Origin: a virus
Taxonomy: Duplodnaviria > Caudoviricetes
Length of the DNA: 54,756 nt
IMG/VR virus record: IMGVR_UViG_3300046716_000023
Location: 1 to 54,756 of that record
Reading direction: 5' to 3' (one strand)
Of this stretch, positions 3,641-38,963 are shown one piece after another. Both the position numbers and the translations under genes were made by a program. The notes beneath the pieces were generated by a model that was given only the letters and a program-made list of their open reading frames with translations, was not told the origin of the DNA and made no database searches. Position 1 is the stretch's first letter. Each line of letters opens with the position of its first letter.

Positions 3641-5823
3641 GGTTCCTCGACTCTGAGACCGCTGGGTTCGTAGGACCCGCCGTTATCTGGCAGCACGCGA
3701 TCGACAACGATCCGATCCAGATCCACCACGTGTGGCGGCGACCGGTCCGTGAGACCCTACAGCTCTTGGAGGACTTCACCGGCGAGAACATCTGTGGGTT
3801 CAATCTGACGTTCGACTGGTTCATGGCGAACAAGGACTACAACGTCTTCCGCCACTTCCAGAACCTGTCCGATCCTCCTACCATCGCGGAGTGGAAAGCC
3901 AATGAGCTCAAGGGATCGCGAGAAGCCTTGTGTCTCAAGCCCGCCTCTGCCCTCGATCTGTATCTGCACGCGTTGCGAGGTCCGATGCAGGTCCTTATGG
4001 ACCGAGACCCAATTGTTATTCGCCGTGTCCCAAAGCTACTTGCCCCTCTTCTCTGCGAAGAACTTGCCCGACTTGTTCACCTCGACAAGATCCACTTCAA
4101 GTTCGGCAAGGACTGGTACGTGGATCCAGAGTCCAAGGATCCCGACTTCCCCGATATTGTCTTGGCATTCGGAGCTACGGCCGCGCTGAAGCCGATCATC
4201 CAGCACGTGTTCGGGATCGAGACCATCGACTTCCCTCTCCCAACCGAGCTGAAGACCACGGACGACAAGAGGACACAGTACTTCCCGTGGAGCGTGAAGC
4301 GCCAGTGGGTTGAGAAGCTTCCCGGCCTGATCGACTATTGGTACACCAACAAGAGGGCGATCGAATATGCCACAGAAGACGTCGAACACCTCCGGCGGTT
4401 GTGGTACCACTGGGGACGACCCGAGCCCGGAGACGATGACTCGATCCTTGCTTGCCAGGTTGCAGCAGTCCGGTGGAGAGGGTTTGCACTCGATCGCGAC
4501 CGAGCCCTCGCCCTCTACAAATCCCAACTGGACCTCGCCCGCTCAAGTGTCCGCTCTCCTACGGCAGTTCGATCCGGACTTCTGCCACTGCTGTCGGATG
4601 TCGAAAAGCTTGTCGTCCAAGACACGCGCGCTGAGACTCTTGAGCAGCTGGTTCACTGGAATGTCGACGGATCCCATACGGGAAGCTTGGATGACGGTAC
4701 TGCGGTCGTCGGAGACCATCCTGCTGCGAAATACTCTGCAGGAGTCATTGCTGCCCGGACTGCCGAGAAGCGTGCTAACCTTGCCGGTAAGCTCTGGCGA
4801 GTTGGAAGCTTTCATCCGGATTTCAAGATACTTGGGGCGAAGTCCGCTCGAATGTCTGGAGCTGGTGGTCTCAATGCACATGGCATTGATAACTGGGGAC
4901 CCATGCGCGCCGTGTTTCCTTTCGCATTCCCCGGCGAAGACTTTTCTGGAGGAGACTTCGACTCCTTCGAGCCGTTCATCGGAGACGCAGCGTACAACGA
5001 TCCCGCCCTTCGACGAGACCTGATGTCCGGTAAGAAGATCCACGGTCTCTTCGGTGAGCAGGCGTTTGAGCTGGACTACTCGATCGTGGTCGCCAACAAG
5101 AACGCAGGTTCGCTCTACGACCGTGCGAAGAAGGGTTACCTCGCGTGGTCGTACGGTGGTCAGGCGAAGAAGATCGCGACCGTGCTGGACAAGCAAGAGA
5201 AGGAGATCACCGCCTTCTTCACGCGAATGGGGTTGAAGTATCCCCAGATGCTGGCGTACCGGGAGAAGCGCGCCATGGAGTTCTGCTCCATGCGGCAGCC
5301 AGCTGGACTTGGTACGCGAGTCGTCTGGCACAAGCCTGCGGAGTACGTGAACTCTCTGCTCGGTGACAAGCGGTACTTCACGCTGGAGAACAAGATCTGC
5401 GAGGCGTTGTTCAATCTCGCGCAGGAGATGCCGCGGGAGTTCATGGATCTCGGGAGGTTCCAGGTCAAGCGTCGTGATCGCACGCAGACCGCGACCGGAG
5501 CTTGCCAGTCAGCGCTCTACGCTGCGGCATTCGGAATCCAAGGCTCGAACATGCGAGCCGCGCTGAACCACGAGATCCAGTCCACTGGCGCACGTATCAC
5601 GAAGGCGACTCAACGCCGTGTGTGGGATCTGCAACCGTGCGGGATCGGTCCATTCCTTGTCCGCATCATGCAGGTCCACGACGAACTCCTCGTCGTCCAT
5701 GTCAACCTCGCAGAGCAAGTCTACGCAGCGGTGATGGAAAGTATCCACCACTACAAGAAGACCGTCCCGCTCCTCGCCATAACCTGGCGCAAGAGCATGC
5801 AAGACTGGAGTGAGATGAAATGA
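3637..5823 (+). CDS. polA: family A DNA polymerase with 3'-5' exonuclease
   Basis: ExoI FLDSET, ExoII GFNLTFD, ExoIII YATED; motif A DFDSFE, motif B RAKKGYLAWSYG, motif C VHDE. Confidence 0.93.
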   Translation: MRFLDSETAGFVGPAVIWQHAIDNDPIQIHHVWRRPVRETLQLLEDFTGENICGFNLTFDWFMANKDYNVFRHFQNLSDPPTIAEWKANELKGSREALCLKPASALDLYLHALRGPMQVLMDRDPIVIRRVPKLLAPLLCEELARLVHLDKIHFKFGKDWYVDPESKDPDFPDIVLAFGATAALKPIIQHVFGIETIDFPLPTELKTTDDKRTQYFPWSVKRQWVEKLPGLIDYWYTNKRAIEYATEDVEHLRRLWYHWGRPEPGDDDSILACQVAAVRWRGFALDRDRALALYKSQLDLARSSVRSPTAVRSGLLPLLSDVEKLVVQDTRAETLEQLVHWNVDGSHTGSLDDGTAVVGDHPAAKYSAGVIAARTAEKRANLAGKLWRVGSFHPDFKILGAKSARMSGAGGLNAHGIDNWGPMRAVFPFAFPGEDFSGGDFDSFEPFIGDAAYNDPALRRDLMSGKKIHGLFGEQAFELDYSIVVANKNAGSLYDRAKKGYLAWSYGGQAKKIATVLDKQEKEITAFFTRMGLKYPQMLAYREKRAMEFCSMRQPAGLGTRVVWHKPAEYVNSLLGDKRYFTLENKICEALFNLAQEMPREFMDLGRFQVKRRDRTQTATGACQSALYAAAFGIQGSNMRAALNHEIQSTGARITKATQRRVWDLQPCGIGPFLVRIMQVHDELLVVHVNLAEQVYAAVMESIHHYKKTVPLLAITWRKSMQDWSEMK

Positions 5824-6128
5824 GCAAGCCCCTGATCCTGGTCAAGTCCGTGAACGCGGACGGCGTCTTCACGAGGATCTGCCTCGACTTCGACTCAATC
5901 TTCGGCATGTCGCCGCATCAGTCGAAGATCCGACTCGCCGAAGGACCGCAGGTCGTCAACGGCACGATCCTGATGTTCAAGAACGGGAAGGAGATGTTCG
6001 TCACTGACGACTTCGACGTCCTGCAGGACCAGTGGATCAACCTCACCCACGCCTGCGTCCTGAACGACGAGTTCGTCGGGACGTGCAAGTGCGGCGAGCA
6101 GTACGTGATCAAGAGCAGGAAGCCATGA
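5820..6128 (+). CDS. hypothetical protein
   Basis: ATGA overlaps. Confidence 0.65.
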   Translation: MSKPLILVKSVNADGVFTRICLDFDSIFGMSPHQSKIRLAEGPQVVNGTILMFKNGKEMFVTDDFDVLQDQWINLTHACVLNDEFVGTCKCGEQYVIKSRKP

Positions 6129-6409
6129 ACCGCTGGGCAGTGCTACTCGAGAAGCAGTCCAAGGACGGTGACACCAAGACGAGGTGGTGCATCGCCGGGG
6201 CTCGCAAGCACGACCTCAAGTACATCGAGGCCACGTGCAACATCAAGGGTGACCACTTCGGCGTCACGAAGAACGGCGGACCCGTGGCGTTCATCGCCCA
6301 GGCCATCGTGATCTGGGAGACCGCGGAGGACAAGCTCGACGCGGAGACCAGGGTCATCATCGAGAAGTGGGCCAACGGTGACTTCGTCATCGATGCGAGT
6401 ACCGCATGA
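6125..6409 (+). CDS. hypothetical protein
   Basis: ATGA overlaps. Confidence 0.6.
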   Translation: MNRWAVLLEKQSKDGDTKTRWCIAGARKHDLKYIEATCNIKGDHFGVTKNGGPVAFIAQAIVIWETAEDKLDAETRVIIEKWANGDFVIDASTA

Positions 6410-6585
6410 TCCTCGTCATCAGACCCTCTGACAAGTGGTGGGTTGGTCACCTTCGTACCCCGGGAGGTCAGACCATTGAGGCCTTCGGCGATTCGATCCA
6501 GGAGATCATCTCCAAGATCTGCGATCGGATGAAGGACAAGGGTGTGGTCGGCCAGTTCGAGGTCAAGTTCGAGGTGCGGGTATGA
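6406..6585 (+). CDS. hypothetical protein (59 aa, below the ORF-track cutoff)
   Basis: Translated by hand, MILVIRPSDKWW...EVRV; ATGA overlaps at both ends fill the gap exactly. Confidence 0.6.
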   Translation: MILVIRPSDKWWVGHLRTPGGQTIEAFGDSIQEIISKICDRMKDKGVVGQFEVKFEVRV

Positions 6586-7511
6586 ACATGGAACCGATGC
6601 TCGCCACCACGCTCGACTACGAGTACGACGAGGATCTGCAACCGAAGTTCACCGAGCAGCAGTTCCAGTGGGACGCTGAGGACAAGCTCGACGGGGTGAG
6701 ACTCCGCGTGAAGCTGGAGTACAACTGCAACGACTCCCTGGCTCTGACCCGCGTCAAGGGCAAGCACACCGGGGAGTACGCGAACAAGCTCGGGCATCTC
6801 GCGTGGGCGAGGACCGACGGACTCGTAGAGCGGACCACCATCCTCGACGGCGAGGGGAAGTGGGGCAAGAACTCGCGCTCGACGATGGAGATCCTCGGCT
6901 GTCATTCCAACGAGTCTCTCCTCCGTCAGGCACGAACCGAACCGCTGAAGTACACAGCGTTCGACATCCTCTTCTTCAACGGAGTCGACGTACGCTTCCA
7001 TACGTTCGAGCGTCGTCGGCTTCTTCTGACGGAGGTGATGACCGGGTTGGAGGCTCAGTTCCCCGGCGAGGTCAACCTAATCCGGACCGGTCCGGCGAGG
7101 TACCTCTGGAGACAGAATGCCGAAGGCATCATGCTCAAGGAGCCGGGACACTACTACCAAGACGGGAAGCGAAGCCCGTCCTGGTTGAAGGTCAAGCGCT
7201 TCAAGAAGTACATCGCGGTGGTGACCGGCTACACGGCCGGCAAGCAGGGGAAGACCGGCCAGATGGTGGGACTCATGGGGAGTCTCTGGCTCGGGATGCT
7301 GGACCACCGAGGCATCCTGATCCCGGTCGGTGCTGCCGGCACCGGCTTCGACATGAACGAACGATCTCCGTTGGCGTGGCCTGTCCGCACCGTTGTGGAA
7401 GTCGCCTCGTCCGACGTAACCGAGGATGGCAAGCTGTGGCATCCCAGGTTCCTGAAACGACGTCCCGATCTGAGGGTCGAAGACGCACAACTGTCACAGC
7501 TGGGGGTCTAG
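6582..7511 (+). CDS. ATP-dependent DNA ligase
   Basis: EDKLDGVR (KxDG), ILDGE, AFDIL, EGIMLK, WLKVK, HPRF. Confidence 0.95.
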   Translation: MNMEPMLATTLDYEYDEDLQPKFTEQQFQWDAEDKLDGVRLRVKLEYNCNDSLALTRVKGKHTGEYANKLGHLAWARTDGLVERTTILDGEGKWGKNSRSTMEILGCHSNESLLRQARTEPLKYTAFDILFFNGVDVRFHTFERRRLLLTEVMTGLEAQFPGEVNLIRTGPARYLWRQNAEGIMLKEPGHYYQDGKRSPSWLKVKRFKKYIAVVTGYTAGKQGKTGQMVGLMGSLWLGMLDHRGILIPVGAAGTGFDMNERSPLAWPVRTVVEVASSDVTEDGKLWHPRFLKRRPDLRVEDAQLSQLGV

Positions 7512-34286: not shown

Positions 34287-34307
34287 TTGTCCCTTCCGAA
34301 GCCCAGT

Positions 34308-34594
34308 CGTAGCGAGCTCGTAGCGAGTTCGCTACGAGCCTCTCTACTACTACTACTCTACCCCGAAACACTCGCTACGTGATCGAACGAAGTTTCTGGG
34401 CGAGCTCGCTACGAGTTCGCTACGAGTTCGCTGCGTAACGTACCGTACACGGTACGAAGAAGTCAAGAGTGACTTTTCCCTCTCTCTCTATTAGAGACAA
34501 TTCTACTTATAAACTATGGGAAATAAAGGACAAGAAAACATATCTCTCTTCTTCTTTCTATCTTCCGGCGCGAACTCGCTACGAGCTCGCTACG
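34308..34594. repeat. cluster of TCGCTACG repeats (8 exact, 1 with one mismatch), tandem copies at 11-bp period
   Basis: Reverse at 34308 and 34319; forward at 34329, 34372, 34406, 34417, 34576, 34587; TCGCTGCG at 34428. Confidence 0.9.
34481..34555 (-). promoter_or_regulatory. probable leftward promoter, copy A of a duplicated element
   Basis: Shares TCTCTCTCTAT, TTCTACT and TGGGAAATAAAGGACA at identical spacing with 48439-48490; TAGAAT on the minus strand. Confidence 0.55.
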
Positions 34595-34639
34595 CGGAGC
34601 TCGGGCCTCAAACCTCTGAAATTTCCTATAAAATTTTGA

Positions 34640-36404: not shown

Positions 36405-36799
36405 TGTTCGTACACTTCCAGACCCATCACTGGGGTCTCGGATGCTGGACCAGCGGCTGGAGATGCGAGACTGAGGAAGAAGCGATGCGTCGCTTCGATC
36501 TCGTGACTCGACACCCGAGCGGCTGGTATCAGTACGACTGCTACGAGCTGAAGAAGTCCGGCAAGGACGACATCAGTCTCGCGGGTGAGATCTACGTGGT
36601 GAAGTGGTATCAGCGGAGACTGCCGCAGTACTGCACACCGCCCGAGAAGCTGTGGACCCACTTCGCAACCCACGTTCCGCGTGGAGCGAGGTGGAACAGG
36701 CACTACCGAGCGTGGGTGGACCACGACGGACACTACTACTGGCCGGTCAAGCTGACGATCGTCAGGCACTTGGCCTCAACGTGGAAGGAGCGTGAATGA
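36404..36799 (+). CDS. hypothetical protein, aromatic-rich
   Basis: TAATG coupling and AAGGAG RBS. Confidence 0.65.
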   Translation: MFVHFQTHHWGLGCWTSGWRCETEEEAMRRFDLVTRHPSGWYQYDCYELKKSGKDDISLAGEIYVVKWYQRRLPQYCTPPEKLWTHFATHVPRGARWNRHYRAWVDHDGHYYWPVKLTIVRHLASTWKERE

Positions 36800-37173
36800 G
36801 CATCAAGCACAGCTGGCCCGAGCGTCTCATCGAGACGATCGTGGACGGCAAGGTGGTCGAGAGCCACGTGGCTCCCGCAGAAGAGAAGTGGTCGAACTAC
36901 GATCTCGAATTCGTGGTCGACCAGACAAAGTGGGACGAGAACCGACAGGCGGACTCGGACACCGATGCTGACGAAGAGTTCGACTTCCCCACGACCGTCG
37001 AGGTCAAGGAAGACGGCTTCAATCAGCAGATCCCGTGGGGTGCGAGTGGCACTCAGATGGAGATCTACGAGAAGGTCGAGGACATGCTGAAGGAATGGCT
37101 GAACCTCGTCCTCAACAACGACTGCAAGGACCGCAAGGTGCGGTTCATCATCTCCGTCACTGAGGCGGAGTAG
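36796..37173 (+). CDS. acidic hypothetical protein
   Basis: ATGA coupling and AAGGAG RBS. Confidence 0.7.
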   Translation: MSIKHSWPERLIETIVDGKVVESHVAPAEEKWSNYDLEFVVDQTKWDENRQADSDTDADEEFDFPTTVEVKEDGFNQQIPWGASGTQMEIYEKVEDMLKEWLNLVLNNDCKDRKVRFIISVTEAE

Positions 37174-37185
37174 TCCCTTTCTCTC

Positions 37186-37214
37186 CGACCTGAGCATGTC
37201 AATAAACTGCTCAG
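37186..37214 (+). ncRNA. intergenic 29-nt repeat, copy 1 (predicted H-type pseudoknot)
   Basis: CGACCTGAGCATGTCAATAAACTGCTCAG. Confidence 0.65.
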
Positions 37215-37227
37215 AAAGACTCTAGCT

Positions 37228-37521
37228 ATGGGCGACACTCAGAAGAACACCGAGGGCAATCTCCCGGGCGTGATCGACACGCACGAGGTGACCCTTAAGA
37301 TCCGGGTCCCGAACAAGCCGAACATGACGGCGGACGGACTCACGGAGTTCCCCTGCACCGCGGTGTTGGTCTACTCGAACGGGACGCGCGTCGTGCTGCC
37401 GATCAGGCAGGCGAAGCCGTCCAAGGCGTCGGGCAAGCTCAACGCGTGGGGCGGTGGGAAGATGGCTCTCGAGGACAACACGCAGGTGATCGTCGGGATC
37501 AACCTGACGGTCATGGAGTAG
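37228..37521 (+). CDS. small beta-rich protein, paralog 1 of 38610-38963
   Basis: 64/80 identical residues over the shared C-terminal domain. Confidence 0.85.
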   Translation: MGDTQKNTEGNLPGVIDTHEVTLKIRVPNKPNMTADGLTEFPCTAVLVYSNGTRVVLPIRQAKPSKASGKLNAWGGGKMALEDNTQVIVGINLTVME

Positions 37522-37548
37522 TAGCTGCTCGCTCGGTTCTCAACTCTT

Positions 37549-37577
37549 CGACCTGGGCATGTCAATAAACTGCCCAA
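37549..37577 (+). ncRNA. intergenic repeat, copy 2
   Basis: CGACCTGGGCATGTCAATAAACTGCCCAA; compensatory A-U to G-C change relative to copy 1. Confidence 0.65.
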
Positions 37578-37587
37578 GGAGTTTCTC

Positions 37588-37791
37588 ATGTTGCAGATCA
37601 AGCTCGCCGCGAAGGTCATCAAAGCGTCCGACCCGTTCGCCAAGGGTCCGGAGTACGTCATCCTCGAGATCGCGTCGAGGGATCTCACGGCGGAAGAGGG
37701 AATGTTCCTCGAGACGATCTTCCCGAACACGAACAAGATCATCGAGCAGGCGCTGAACACCGAAGCGGTGATCAGCGCGATCCGTCAGTAG
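37588..37791 (+). CDS. hypothetical protein
   Basis: AAGGAG RBS directly after the repeat. Confidence 0.7.
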   Translation: MLQIKLAAKVIKASDPFAKGPEYVILEIASRDLTAEEGMFLETIFPNTNKIIEQALNTEAVISAIRQ

Positions 37792-37802
37792 TCTGAACCC
37801 TT

Positions 37803-37831
37803 CGACCTGGGCATGTCAATAAACTGCCCAG
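37803..37831 (+). ncRNA. intergenic repeat, copy 3
   Basis: CGACCTGGGCATGTCAATAAACTGCCCAG. Confidence 0.65.
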
Positions 37832-37841
37832 AAAGGTGCGC

Positions 37842-38147
37842 ATGCCGCACATCAAGGAGAAGAACGTCAACGCCGCCCAGAAGAAGGCGGACAAGTTGGA
37901 CGTGGACGAGCTGAAGAAGCTCACCATCGAGCAGGTCGCCGGACTGGCGCTGCAGGTCGACGCGACCGAGAAGGCTCTGAAGGAGCAGGCGCGGATCGTG
38001 AAGCAGCACGTGCACAAGGTCTACGGACCGCTGTGCGCGAAGAAGAAGGAGCTGGAGATCGAGTACGCCTTCCTCGTGGCCAAGCTCGAGAAGGTCAAGG
38101 AGATCAACCCGGCCATCGCCGCGATCTCCAAGCTCGCGGGTCTCTAG
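37842..38147 (+). CDS. basic coiled-coil hypothetical protein
   Basis: AAAGGT RBS after the repeat; strong codon bias. Confidence 0.7.
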   Translation: MPHIKEKNVNAAQKKADKLDVDELKKLTIEQVAGLALQVDATEKALKEQARIVKQHVHKVYGPLCAKKKELEIEYAFLVAKLEKVKEINPAIAAISKLAGL

Positions 38148-38154
38148 ACTTCTA

Positions 38155-38440
38155 GCGACATCCGGAGATAAACCGCAACAATGTGGTACGAAGCTCGCGC
38201 TCCGCCTAACATAGCGGAATAAGTCGCAACATCGCTCCCGCCTGGGTGGGGAGACTCTAATTATTAGACGTTAGGGGCAGCCCCGAACTTTGAGCCCCGG
38301 GGTATGGCGGGGAATGTGGCGCCGAACACTGCGGAGAGGCTATAGCCTTCGGGGTGCGATCCATGGCTTTGCCGCCTACACCACGATACGGCCGGGAGAT
38401 GTCGTATCGCCGGGTACTGCACACTCGGCCCAAGCCCTAA
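38155..38440 (+). ncRNA. putative structured non-coding RNA (~290 nt), family not recognised; strand inferred from context and G-U pairs
   Basis: No ORF; at least 8 complementary segment pairs, including nested long-range helices. Confidence 0.55.
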
Positions 38441-38441
38441 A

Positions 38442-38497
38442 ACAAAATTTTATTTTGTAGGCTCCTATTTGATTTTGAATGCTGTAGTATGTATGCT
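38442..38497 (+). promoter_or_regulatory. sigma70-type promoter with AT-rich upstream palindrome
   Basis: TTGATT (38469-74), 17-bp spacer, TATGCT (38492-97); ACAAAAT-ttt-ATTTTGT at 38442-58. Confidence 0.65.
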
Positions 38498-38609
38498 ATG
38501 TCGATGAGAGGTGCAGTCAGTAGGGCCGGCGCTGAGTATGTGCTCTGCCCACCCGACCGATGCAGCCCGACACGGCATGCACAGGAGCCGGTAGAACCGG
38601 TAGCGTATC

Positions 38610-38963
38610 ATGGGTGAAGTGAACAAGCAGTCCGAGGGCGCGGTCGGTGGCGGAAGCCCGGTGAAGGGACCCAACACGCCGTTCGCCACGAAGAAGGGGA
38701 ACGAGGTCGTGATCCCCGAGACCCACGAGGTGACCGTCAAGGCGCGCATCGCCAAGGCGCCGAACCTCTCGGTCGACGGGCTCACCGAGTTCCCCTGCGC
38801 CGCCATCCTCGTCTACGCCAACGGCACCCGCGTGGTGCTCCCCATCCGCCAGCCGAAGCCGTCGTCGGCCTCGGGCAAGATCAACGCGTGGGGCGGCGGC
38901 AAGATGGCGCTCGAGGACAACACGCAGGTGCAGGTGGGCATCAACCTCACCGTGATGGAGTAG
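38610..38963 (+). CDS. small beta-rich protein, paralog 2
   Basis: Paralog of 37228-37521; almost all third positions are G/C. Confidence 0.85.
   Translation: MGEVNKQSEGAVGGGSPVKGPNTPFATKKGNEVVIPETHEVTVKARIAKAPNLSVDGLTEFPCAAILVYANGTRVVLPIRQPKPSSASGKINAWGGGKMALEDNTQVQVGINLTVME

Follow-up and report, generated by a model that had tools for sequence, protein, structure and literature searches.

A compact predicted pseudoknot repeated between early genes of a tailed phage belongs to a large family enriched in phage DNA

What purpose might be served by a short sequence that a phage places three times, nearly unchanged, in front of successive small genes? The question is raised by the IMG/VR record IMGVR_UViG_3300046716_000023 (Duplodnaviria; Caudoviricetes), a tailed-phage genome of 54,756 bp with direct terminal repeats and an estimated completeness of 100%, which was analysed in its full length and is referred to as the window. 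A preliminary description of this DNA, made from its letters, had noted three repeats between positions 37,186 and 37,831, had proposed that each folds into an H-type pseudoknot, and had offered as possible roles nuclease-blocking or processing signals, translational switches, antitoxin decoys and cassette boundaries for gene shuffling. We find that the repeats belong to a large family of compact predicted pseudoknots, here called knots, and tentatively favour a role as punctuation marks of phage mRNA.

A search of the window with the 28-nt motif CGACCTG(A/G)GCATGTCAATAAACTGC(T/C)CA, permitting up to three mismatches, returned three sites at 37186-37213, 37549-37576 and 37803-37830, all on the + strand and in the number originally noted, compared to a mean of 0.00 in 100 dinucleotide-preserving shuffles. 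A scan of the whole virus record gave the identical three sites, with none on the reverse strand and none for a backwards control, and the 15-nt core of the motif alone detects the same sites in the window and no others. Internally, the copies differ only at motif positions 8 (A/G) and 26 (T/C), which pair with each other, so that the sole internal differences indeed form a compensatory pair. The distance from the motif end to the following ATG (at 37228, 37588 and 37842) is 14, 11 and 11 nt, which nearly reproduces the 10-13 nt reported initially, the first copy lying just outside that range. In the predicted fold, a short stem (S1) formed by GAC and GTC crosses a longer stem (S2), with the following positions:

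37187-37213, + strand: pseudoknot copy 1, whose S2 carries the A:T variant of the compensatory pair; S1 5' strand GAC (37187-37189), loop 1 C (37190), S2 5' strand TGAGCA (37191-37196), loop 2 T (37197), S1 3' strand GTC (37198-37200), loop 3 AATAAAC (37201-37207), S2 3' strand TGCTCA (37208-37213).
37550-37576, + strand: pseudoknot copy 2, GAC-C-TGGGCA-T-GTC-AATAAAC-TGCCCA.
37804-37830, + strand: pseudoknot copy 3, identical in sequence to copy 2.

Each copy would thus be a 27-nt knot with a GAC:GUC S1, a single C as first loop, an S2 closed by CA:UG, a single U as second loop and a 7-nt third loop ending in AAAC. A scanner that considers geometry only, requiring AAAC, an S2 of at least 5 bp, a 3-bp S1 and loops of set length, picks out precisely the three repeats in the 54,756-nt window, whereas 200 shuffles contain on average 0.225 and at most two. 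Since GAC and GTC are invariant in the window, their pairing is untestable there, and its confirmation came from covariation in homologues. These were collected from phage and metagenome DNA by pattern scans, and the 'AAAC-loop' phage pseudoknot is defined here by a 3-bp S1, a 1-nt C loop, an S2 of at least 5 bp closed by CA:UG, a 1-nt loop and a 7-nt loop ending in AAAC, placed on the coding strand in a spacer. All three window copies are of this kind, and the geometry scanner located at least 310 distinct copies in the fetched loci.

The pairing of both helices was evaluated with patterns in which the stem in question was left free. With only S2 and TAAAC fixed, 120 of 122 distinct copies among the matches listed show three out of three Watson-Crick pairs in S1, whereas 1000 partner-shuffled controls reach 21.8 on average and 35 at most. 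S1 is built from 14 different triplets in these sequences (GAC 36, CAC 27, GUC 19, CUC 12, AUC 10, and others). When instead the three outer pairs of S2 were freed, 73 of 98 copies among the matches listed were fully paired, whereas shuffling yields 38.9 and at most 50. In an alignment of 148 sequences that includes the pseudoknot, 93.1% of the cells pair and 195 double changes are found, values not reached in any of 500 shuffles, although this percentage is partly circular because the sequences were chosen by a structural scanner and the alignment was fitted to the structure; the unbiased counts of covariation are the 120 of 122 and 73 of 98 obtained with free stems. Sliding the registers of the alignment reduces pairing to 23-43% in all cases. 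As judged from these comparisons, both helices covary across a large family and the proposed pseudoknot is well supported, so that the structural part of the preliminary description, an H-type fold in which GAC and GTC cross the main stem ahead of an A-rich third loop, was correct.

The resulting consensus reads 5'-[S1a NNN]-C-U-[S2a ..CA]-N-[S1b N'N'N']-NNN-AAAC-[S2b UG..]-A, with 3-4 bp in S1, 6-7 bp in S2 and one base in each of loops 1 and 2. A fourth S1 pair is present in 102 of the 148 aligned sequences. Loop 1 is C, or CT where a U-A pair was not counted, in 305 of 310 copies, and in loop 2 252 of the 310 have U and 45 have A, both among the matches listed. Of 105 copies, 104-105 retain each of the three A residues of loop 3 (NNN-AAAC) and 100 its final C, while 65 have U just before the A residues. 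From sequence, this geometry is that of a classical compact H-type pseudoknot, in which a single base would span the deep groove of the 6-7-bp helix and the A-rich strand would run in the minor groove of the short helix. A first sign of a loop that is not invariant was observed in locus L200 (450-830), where five copies occupy about 400 noncoding nt between the end of a gene and an intrinsic terminator and where the loops of the array vary (TGTCTATAAAG, CGTCTTTAAAC, TGTCGCTAAAC).

The three repeats belong to a large family with strong enrichment in phage DNA. When IMG/VR was scanned for exact matches to the 15-nt core, many were due to chance or to coding sequence, and a further set combined GACC(T), the core and a complementary stem, with a stem sequence that differed between loci. 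Tighter patterns identified 31 viral and 64 metagenome loci among the matches listed, and patterns with different parts freed each identified at least about 120 loci. As these collection scans employ exact patterns, the census, the frequencies of bases fixed by the pattern (CA:UG and the U following the loop-1 C) and the host range are lower bounds or biased. Matches inside long open reading frames (ORFs) were excluded as false positives, for example the L005-type, L123/124/128/129/149, L142, L153-156, L158-162 and the GACCTCGTGCAA family. In two metagenome contigs, L187 and L208, C-rich DNA of eukaryotic appearance is organized in long arrays, whose hairpin-like units measure about 40 nt and have loops of the AAACTG type; one unit fits the search pattern exactly and the arrays were set aside as probably unrelated tandem repeats.

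Carrier loci range in GC content from 27 to 61%. Cultured carriers were found by BLAST with queries of 31-36 nt and the scanner confirmed the fold in seven of them, namely Roseophage SIO1, the Lactobacillus phages KC5a and phig1e, the crAss-like phage cr7_1 (with two copies), Cyanophage S-RIM4, Cellulosimicrobium phage DS1 and Pasteurella phage PMP-GADVASU-IND, whereas phages of Lentibacter, Celeribacter and Rhizobium are BLAST matches whose fold the scanner did not confirm. Lactobacillus phage Bacchae (L610) has a degenerate copy within a cluster of tRNAs, with mismatches in S2 recognized by eye, which the scanner did not return. The hosts of carrier phages thus include Actinomycetota, Bacillota, Pseudomonadota and Cyanobacteriota, and crAss-like phages carry the knot too. 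In 185,579 bacterial species genomes, the strict pattern matched ten loci, nine of them inside long ORFs and a single one intergenic, in a metagenome-assembled Nostoc genome. Plasmids returned only seven partial matches, all within annotated coding sequences and none covering 80% of the query, and a megablast search of cultured phages with the repeat region as query gave no match.

Neither RNA databases nor the literature contained the knot where we searched. The comparison to Rfam that had been suggested at the outset returned no match at gathering score across the window, and between 37100 and 38700, with E-values up to 10, nothing except a chance antisense match of 15.7 bits. No Rfam match overlaps a knot in 25 other carrier loci, and in the window and these loci none of the models for hammerhead, twister, twister-sister, pistol, hatchet, HDV and hairpin ribozymes overlaps one. 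Searches by sequence strings in 8.4 million papers and preprints gave nothing relevant, and keywords likewise led to no description. The knot may be among about 10,000 unnamed phage RNA candidates of a catalogue (PMC10690425); the motif was not found in the six of its supplementary files that were searched. Absent from Rfam 15 and found by sequence strings in no paper, the family is uncatalogued.

We then turned to the genomic context of the family. The following counts come from a crude ORF caller, and the 74 of 310 copies that lie inside some called ORF of at least 50 amino acids were set aside, leaving 236. A gene within 60 nt upstream is on the same strand in 150 of these copies, on the opposite strand in 15 and absent in 71, and a gene within 100 nt downstream is on the same strand in 127, on the opposite strand in 25 and absent in 84. 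The gap between an upstream stop codon and the knot is never shorter than 5 nt. Among 193 cases, gaps of 6 nt (37) and 7 nt (20) form a peak and longer ones become rarer, a spacing at which the front of a ribosome terminating upstream would be expected. Towards the next start codon the spacing is less strict, the median being 25 nt. At free stem positions, G·U exceeds A·C by 20 to 10. Because of the co-orientation with genes, the spacing from stop codons and the excess of G·U over A·C, these data indicate that the knot works as sense-strand RNA in untranslated spacers, in an orientation-dependent manner.

The same data bear on the possibility that the repeats act at the level of DNA, either as a signal for recombination or cassette exchange, comparable to integron attC sites or PeSL elements, or as folded single-stranded target of a nuclease or recombinase. 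Such a role would account for features of the related phages. Five related contigs each contain three or four copies in the same early region, with two of the three matches in G006 representing one site repeated in the terminal repeat. With K denoting a knot and small letters the families of the neighbouring genes, their order is:

Window: d-K-a-K-i-K-c.
G005: e-K-a-K-b-K-d..f-K-?
G007 and G008: K-a-K-g..d-K-c.
G009: K-b-K-h-K-c.
G006: f-K-b-K-c.

As is evident from these mosaic orders in six genomes, the genes between knots (families a, b, c, d, g, h and i) differ and change order among relatives, a point that had been singled out for checking, while a block of about 45 nt consisting of a pyrimidine tract, the knot and the Shine-Dalgarno (SD) sequence stays in place. 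The sequence comparison thus supports a coincidence of the knot blocks with the joints at which small early genes appear to be exchanged as cassettes in this phage group, and the earlier idea of cassette boundaries holds as a correlation. Regulatory repeats that mediate shuffling have a precedent in the PeSL/PmSL cassettes of T4-type phages, as described in PMC2839356 and PMC4122927. The knots resemble PeSLs as conserved intergenic repeats in plastic regions, flanked by small ORFan genes, at places where related phages differ by gain, loss or swap of a cassette. They differ from them in that PeSLs are lineage-specific and combine a terminator hairpin with a sigma-70-type promoter, whereas the knots are pseudoknots with a core common to very different phages, and no sigma-70-type promoter is found within the repeat at the three copies of the window, where only 11-14 nt, filled by the SD sequence, separate the knot from the ATG.

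Elsewhere, copies also occupy plastic regions with ORFans, tRNAs and HNH genes. In L229 the order is gene-knot-tRNA-Lys-HNH and in the Pasteurella phage (L609) tRNA-Lys-knot-HNH, and knots recur beside tRNA and HNH endonuclease genes in these two loci and in L610, all in plastic regions rich in mobile genes. A function exerted as DNA nevertheless has to contend with the 5-nt minimum and the peak at 6-7 nt from stop codons and with the co-orientation with genes, which point to RNA and a ribosome footprint, with the excess of G·U over A·C, and with an AAAC that is conserved but, unlike in attC, has no paired partner. No recombinase was found in the window, in a search that was not exhaustive for larger ORFs. 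We thus consider a DNA-level site to be very unlikely.

An ordinary promoter or intrinsic terminator would be a further explanation of the repeats. TAAACT resembles a -10 hexamer and in AT-rich carriers a T-run often follows the hairpin. However, neither element was called at the three sites, the distance from TGACC to TAAACT leaves a spacer of 12 bp instead of the 16-18 bp between -35 and -10 hexamers, the window copies are devoid of a T-run, and the covariation of a helix that crosses the hairpin is explained by neither. We regard this explanation as hardly credible. Readings of the repeat as boxA-like, as sigma-70 promoter or as attC-like had been rejected on spacing or on a missing paired core.

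If the knot works as RNA, does it control the gene that follows? As an operator or enhancer of translation it would bind a repressor or the 30S subunit, or toggle a helix between an anti-SD tract and the SD sequence. In the window and its relatives the SD begins 0-1 nt after S2, with the purine-rich sequences GAAAGA, AGGAG and GAAAGG directly 3' of the three copies, and a same-strand ORF follows within 100 nt in the 127 of 236 copies counted above. Nested minimum free energy (MFE) folds of copies 2 and 3 pair an upstream CUCUU/CCUU tract with the SD. This SD-masking outer helix was predicted for these copies and was rejected, as it does not covary: the observed value of 4.62 compares to 4.67 after swapping of partners, and 66% of swaps equal or exceed the observation. 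Moreover, the distance to the start codon is loose, with the median given above, no phage protein is common to carriers, and among 203 copies evaluable for same-strand neighbours 56 have an upstream gene only, compared to 79 with both, 40 with a downstream gene only and 28 with neither. Some copies precede tRNAs or terminators. Given the lack of covariation between tract and SD and the presence of knots before tRNAs and terminators, the suggestion of a translational switch, as far as it relied on masking of the SD, is not supported, and control of the next gene strikes us as quite improbable.

The settings in which knots are found are diverse. Besides lying between cistrons, they precede terminators (the third copy of G001, L221 and the last copy of L200), are located 3-9 nt before tRNA genes (L229, L283, L337 and L396) or reside in 5' leaders behind a TATAAT box and two hairpins (the group of L499), and this variety supports autonomy. 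The 433 flanking proteins form 265 clusters, 197 of them with a single member; judged by eye, without a family search, the largest resemble Hsp20, an FmdB-type zinc ribbon and SNase, and no protein family is common to the flanks of carriers. In phage DS1 (L608, 2528-2570), a sequence resembling a T7-class promoter (..CTACTCACTATGGAAAGGAGG..) begins within about 10 nt after the knot. If this reading of the promoter is right, the knot of DS1 would end one transcription unit instead of leading the next gene. Together, spacing, orientation and context indicate that the knot must stay folded and that it is autonomous rather than a regulator of a particular gene.

We favour, at a probability of roughly 35%, that the knot is an autonomous RNA punctuation module serving the processing, stability or insulation of mRNA, so that the nuclease-blocking or processing signal of the preliminary description is the leading candidate among the roles it offered. 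Each repeat would be transcribed as a 27-nt H-type pseudoknot within an early polycistronic mRNA. By starting just beyond the reach of a ribosome terminating upstream, a compact knot of the triple-helix type would keep its fold and could block the host machinery that processes and degrades RNA, or be recognized by it. This would define stable segments of mRNA, and the knot may further keep the abutting SD sequence out of long-range pairing. The exchange of cassettes at knots would be a by-product.

Several known RNA elements resemble the knot in part. The pseudoknot of the phage T2/T4 gene 32 mRNA, a translational operator, has a one-base first loop that crosses a 6-7-bp helix and a 7-nt last loop and is located upstream of an SD sequence. 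It shares with the family the H-type fold in a phage mRNA, the one-base first loop and the position before an SD, and it differs by a 5-bp first helix, another loop sequence and its tie to one gene and its own product gp32, whereas the knot family is tied to none. Frameshift knots of the luteovirus type, such as that of beet western yellows virus (BWYV), and exoribonuclease-resistant RNAs (xrRNAs) are compact, contain a loop-1 C and A-rich minor-groove triples and act as mechanical barriers at about 6-8 nt from the position where the ribosome stops. The knots resemble them in compactness, in the loop-1 C, in the A-rich loop and in the distance of about 6-8 nt from a stopping point. In contrast to BWYV-type elements, they have no slippery site, follow stop codons that are mostly UAA and occur in mRNAs of DNA phages, where an activity as barrier would have to be assumed. 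Finally, in the early operon of T7, a single polycistronic mRNA carries RNase III sites that, like the knots, are conserved structures repeated from one early gene to the next, although these sites, specific to T7-like phages, are long irregular hairpins of about two helical turns, whereas the knot measures 27 nt with only 6-7 bp of continuous helix.

With respect to recoding, the 193 upstream stop codons comprise 115 TAA, 58 TAG and 20 TGA, with in-frame extensions that are mostly short or random, and no slippery heptamer pattern was found in 60 listed spacers. Readthrough or frameshifting was therefore not retained as a candidate: the next ORF is in frame at copy 1 and out of frame at copy 3, a double stop (TAGTAG) precedes copy 2, and the family as a whole gives no signal. 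Mimicry of a tRNA-Asp codon-anticodon pair (GAC/GUC) was likewise rejected, since S1 uses 14 different triplets.

Certain properties of the family weigh against a role in punctuation. A mere barrier could be built in many ways, and yet one solution (C, U, CA:UG and AAAC) is found across phages of at least four host phyla, which points to a specific partner or a specific chemistry. The near absence from bacteria, with one intergenic copy among the ten matches in 185,579 species genomes, would be odd for a generic stabilizer. The knot is also tied to neither the preceding nor the following gene (79/56/40/28 of 203 in the order both, upstream only, downstream only and neither), and the context counts depend on crude gene calling, with 74 of 310 copies inside called ORFs of at least 50 amino acids.

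In a more far-reaching reading, which we view as a tentative possibility, the knot would be a portable and autonomous functional RNA shared by phages of many host phyla. It would act either as a self-cleaving ribozyme, the smallest in nature, or as an aptamer or sponge whose target is a universal host factor or a signalling or nucleobase-like small molecule. The loop-1 C and AAAC could in this case form a pocket at the helix junction as in preQ1-I. If true, the knot would represent a new class of functional RNA and not merely a structural spacer.

Viewed separately, a binding module would act as an aptamer or decoy directed at a conserved factor of the host (the ribosome or its 30S subunit, RNA polymerase or an RNase) or at a small molecule, with the purpose to recruit, sequester or sense its partner; an RNA sponge and a riboswitch-like sensor would both fall under this description. 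Conservation is concentrated at the helix junction (loop-1 C, loop-2 U, CA:UG and AAAC) while the helices vary freely, which is the pattern of a pocket or recognition surface. The same solution is found in phages of Actinomycetota, Bacillota, Pseudomonadota and Cyanobacteriota hosts and in crAss-like phages, is enriched in phages, is independent of context and sometimes occurs in arrays. The fold type is that of preQ1-I aptamers (RF00522). According to PMC11625349, these H-type pseudoknots of about 34 nt have the smallest fold of all known riboswitches; the minor groove of a helix takes up the A-rich loop that comes after it, the ligand binds between stacked helices, and the SD is located at or next to the 3' strand. 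The knots share with them the H-type fold, the A-rich last loop, the conserved junction bases and the SD at or near the 3' strand, and they differ in that the lengths of the helices are reversed (3-4 and 6-7 bp in the knot compared to 5 and 3-4 bp) and in that loops 1 and 2 are single bases. The preQ1-I covariance model returned no match, either across the window at gathering score or in 37100-38700 at E-values up to 10, and the diverse flanking proteins (197 singletons in 265 clusters) show no association with queuosine or preQ1 genes.

The knots share no regulated gene family, which makes a classical riboswitch unlikely. An expression platform would also be inconsistent, with a variable distance to the SD and with copies that precede tRNAs or terminators, and the S2 hairpin should form with or without a ligand. 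We therefore rate a binding module as rather unlikely when taken on its own.

A new, very small self-cleaving ribozyme, or a universal cleavage signal for an RNase, would cut polycistronic transcripts and pre-tRNAs. The distribution of the knots is like that of hammerhead, twister and pistol ribozymes, which are enriched in phages, intergenic, co-oriented with genes, independent of gene family, present in several copies per genome and found near tRNAs; as for the small phage ribozymes in general, including hatchet, members occur in phage and metagenome DNA and sometimes adjoin each other and tRNAs. About ten near-invariant bases are embedded in a covarying scaffold, and known ribozymes or introns adjoin the knot in three loci. 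L351 contains a pistol ribozyme (327-391; Rfam, 62.5 bits) 110 nt upstream of the knot, and L191 contains a hammerhead-like motif (at about 660-700) 35 nt downstream, which is a regex match that Rfam did not confirm. The third is found on the - strand of an unrelated 66.5-kb phage (G002; locus L165, G002:16000-27000, positions 5340-6720), where an ORF resembling a minor head protein has a group I intron at its end (Rfam, 58.2 bits), followed by a match to the int-alpA RNA (43.1 bits) and an HNH-like ORF, whose TGA stop codon provides the first bases of a knot located just upstream of a scaffold-like gene. Conversely, a known ribozyme is nearby in only 2 of 281 loci, no conserved base flanks the motif, and the knots match none of the Rfam models of the phage ribozymes and are about half their size. 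To our knowledge, 27 nt is far below the size of any natural self-cleaving class. Cleavage within or at the knot is thus in our view unlikely.

A short repeated pseudoknot with an A-rich single strand also recalls the type III antitoxins of the ToxI kind, of which phage-encoded versions (pseudo-ToxI) are known, and the knots could be mimics that neutralize a host RNase of the ToxN/AbiQ type. The resemblance extends to the fold, as ToxI RNAs are short repeated pseudoknots and the copies do fold accordingly by prediction, but not to the arrangement, since ToxI consists of contiguous tandem repeats with units of 34-45 nt beside a toxin gene, whereas the knots are dispersed between ORFs. In the window, the copies start 363 and 254 nt apart, with ORFs of 97 and 67 amino acids between them, and are not in tandem. 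One invariant solution across at least four host phyla is also unlike the cognate-specific antitoxins. A search for ToxN (PF13958) gave no match in the 54.8-kb genome and equally none in any of 14 control genomes. The spacing, the intervening ORFs and the single solution across phyla leave the earlier proposal of an antitoxin or decoy without support, and we consider it highly improbable; even taken together, a DNA-level site, an antitoxin mimic and a promoter or terminator amount to a small chance.

The combination of freely covarying helices and about ten fixed junction bases across phages of at least four host phyla is a signature that has preceded discoveries of riboswitches and ribozymes. 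As the knot is short, abundant and present in cultured phages (KC5a, phig1e, SIO1 and DS1), its function is directly testable. It is a candidate for a general part of phage gene expression that could explain how dense phage operons are punctuated and that might find use as insulator in synthetic operons. In this phage group, the knots mark swap points of early accessory genes, which bears on the origin of phage mosaicism.

Within the window, terminase, portal and tape-measure genes occupy the - strand between about 9.1 and 34.3 kb, whereas the + strand carries small ORFs from about 34.5 kb, followed by genes of replication and nucleotide metabolism. The three repeats reside in an early operon of small ORFs without family match, and scans of the flanking small ORFs with Pfam and PHROGs gave nothing useful. 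No tRNAs were found in the window. The TAG stop codons upstream precede the knots by 13, 28 and 12 nt for copies 1 to 3. All three upstream stops are TAG and so are those of the next three genes that lack knots, hence the stop bias is uninformative. The features surrounding the repeats are:

36796-37173, + strand: 125-aa ORF of family d, with its TAG stop 13 nt before knot 1; no Pfam or PHROG match.
37214-37230, + strand: SD-like GAAAGA right after knot 1, followed by ATG 37228 of the 97-aa ORF.
37228-37521, + strand: 97-aa ORF of family a, with a paralogue at 38610-38963; its TAG is followed by a second TAG, 28 nt before knot 2.
37577-37590, + strand: SD AGGAG abutting knot 2, followed by ATG 37588 of the 67-aa ORF.
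37588-37791, + strand: 67-aa ORF of family i, found in this genome only among the six compared; TAG 12 nt before knot 3.
37831-37844, + strand: SD-like GAAAGG abutting knot 3, followed by ATG 37842 of the 101-aa ORF.
37842-38147, + strand: 101-aa ORF of family c, which follows the last knot in five of the six related genomes.

The paralogous small genes at 37228-37521 (97 aa) and 38610-38963 (117 aa) are 79% identical in DNA over 248 nt; neither has a family match and a knot precedes only the first. They are separated in part by an ORF-free gap of 460 nt (38148-38610), located after the last knot-led gene, that is retained at the DNA level with 79% identity over 441 nt in G005, 69% over 361 nt in G006 and parts in G009. 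Several blocks and hairpins within it are conserved, compensatory changes occur in some of them, and its 3' end has an AT-rich stretch that looks like a promoter. No Rfam family matches the gap, which, to judge from its sequence, may be a structured RNA of unknown kind or a control region. Further upstream, between the structural arm on the - strand and the early arm on the + strand and next to a stretch of low GC content, a divergent control region (34289-34600) contains several direct and inverted copies of the 11-nt unit CGCTACGAG(C/T)T, including a perfect inverted pair of 25 nt whose members are 237 nt apart, repeats that look like a set of operators or iterons.

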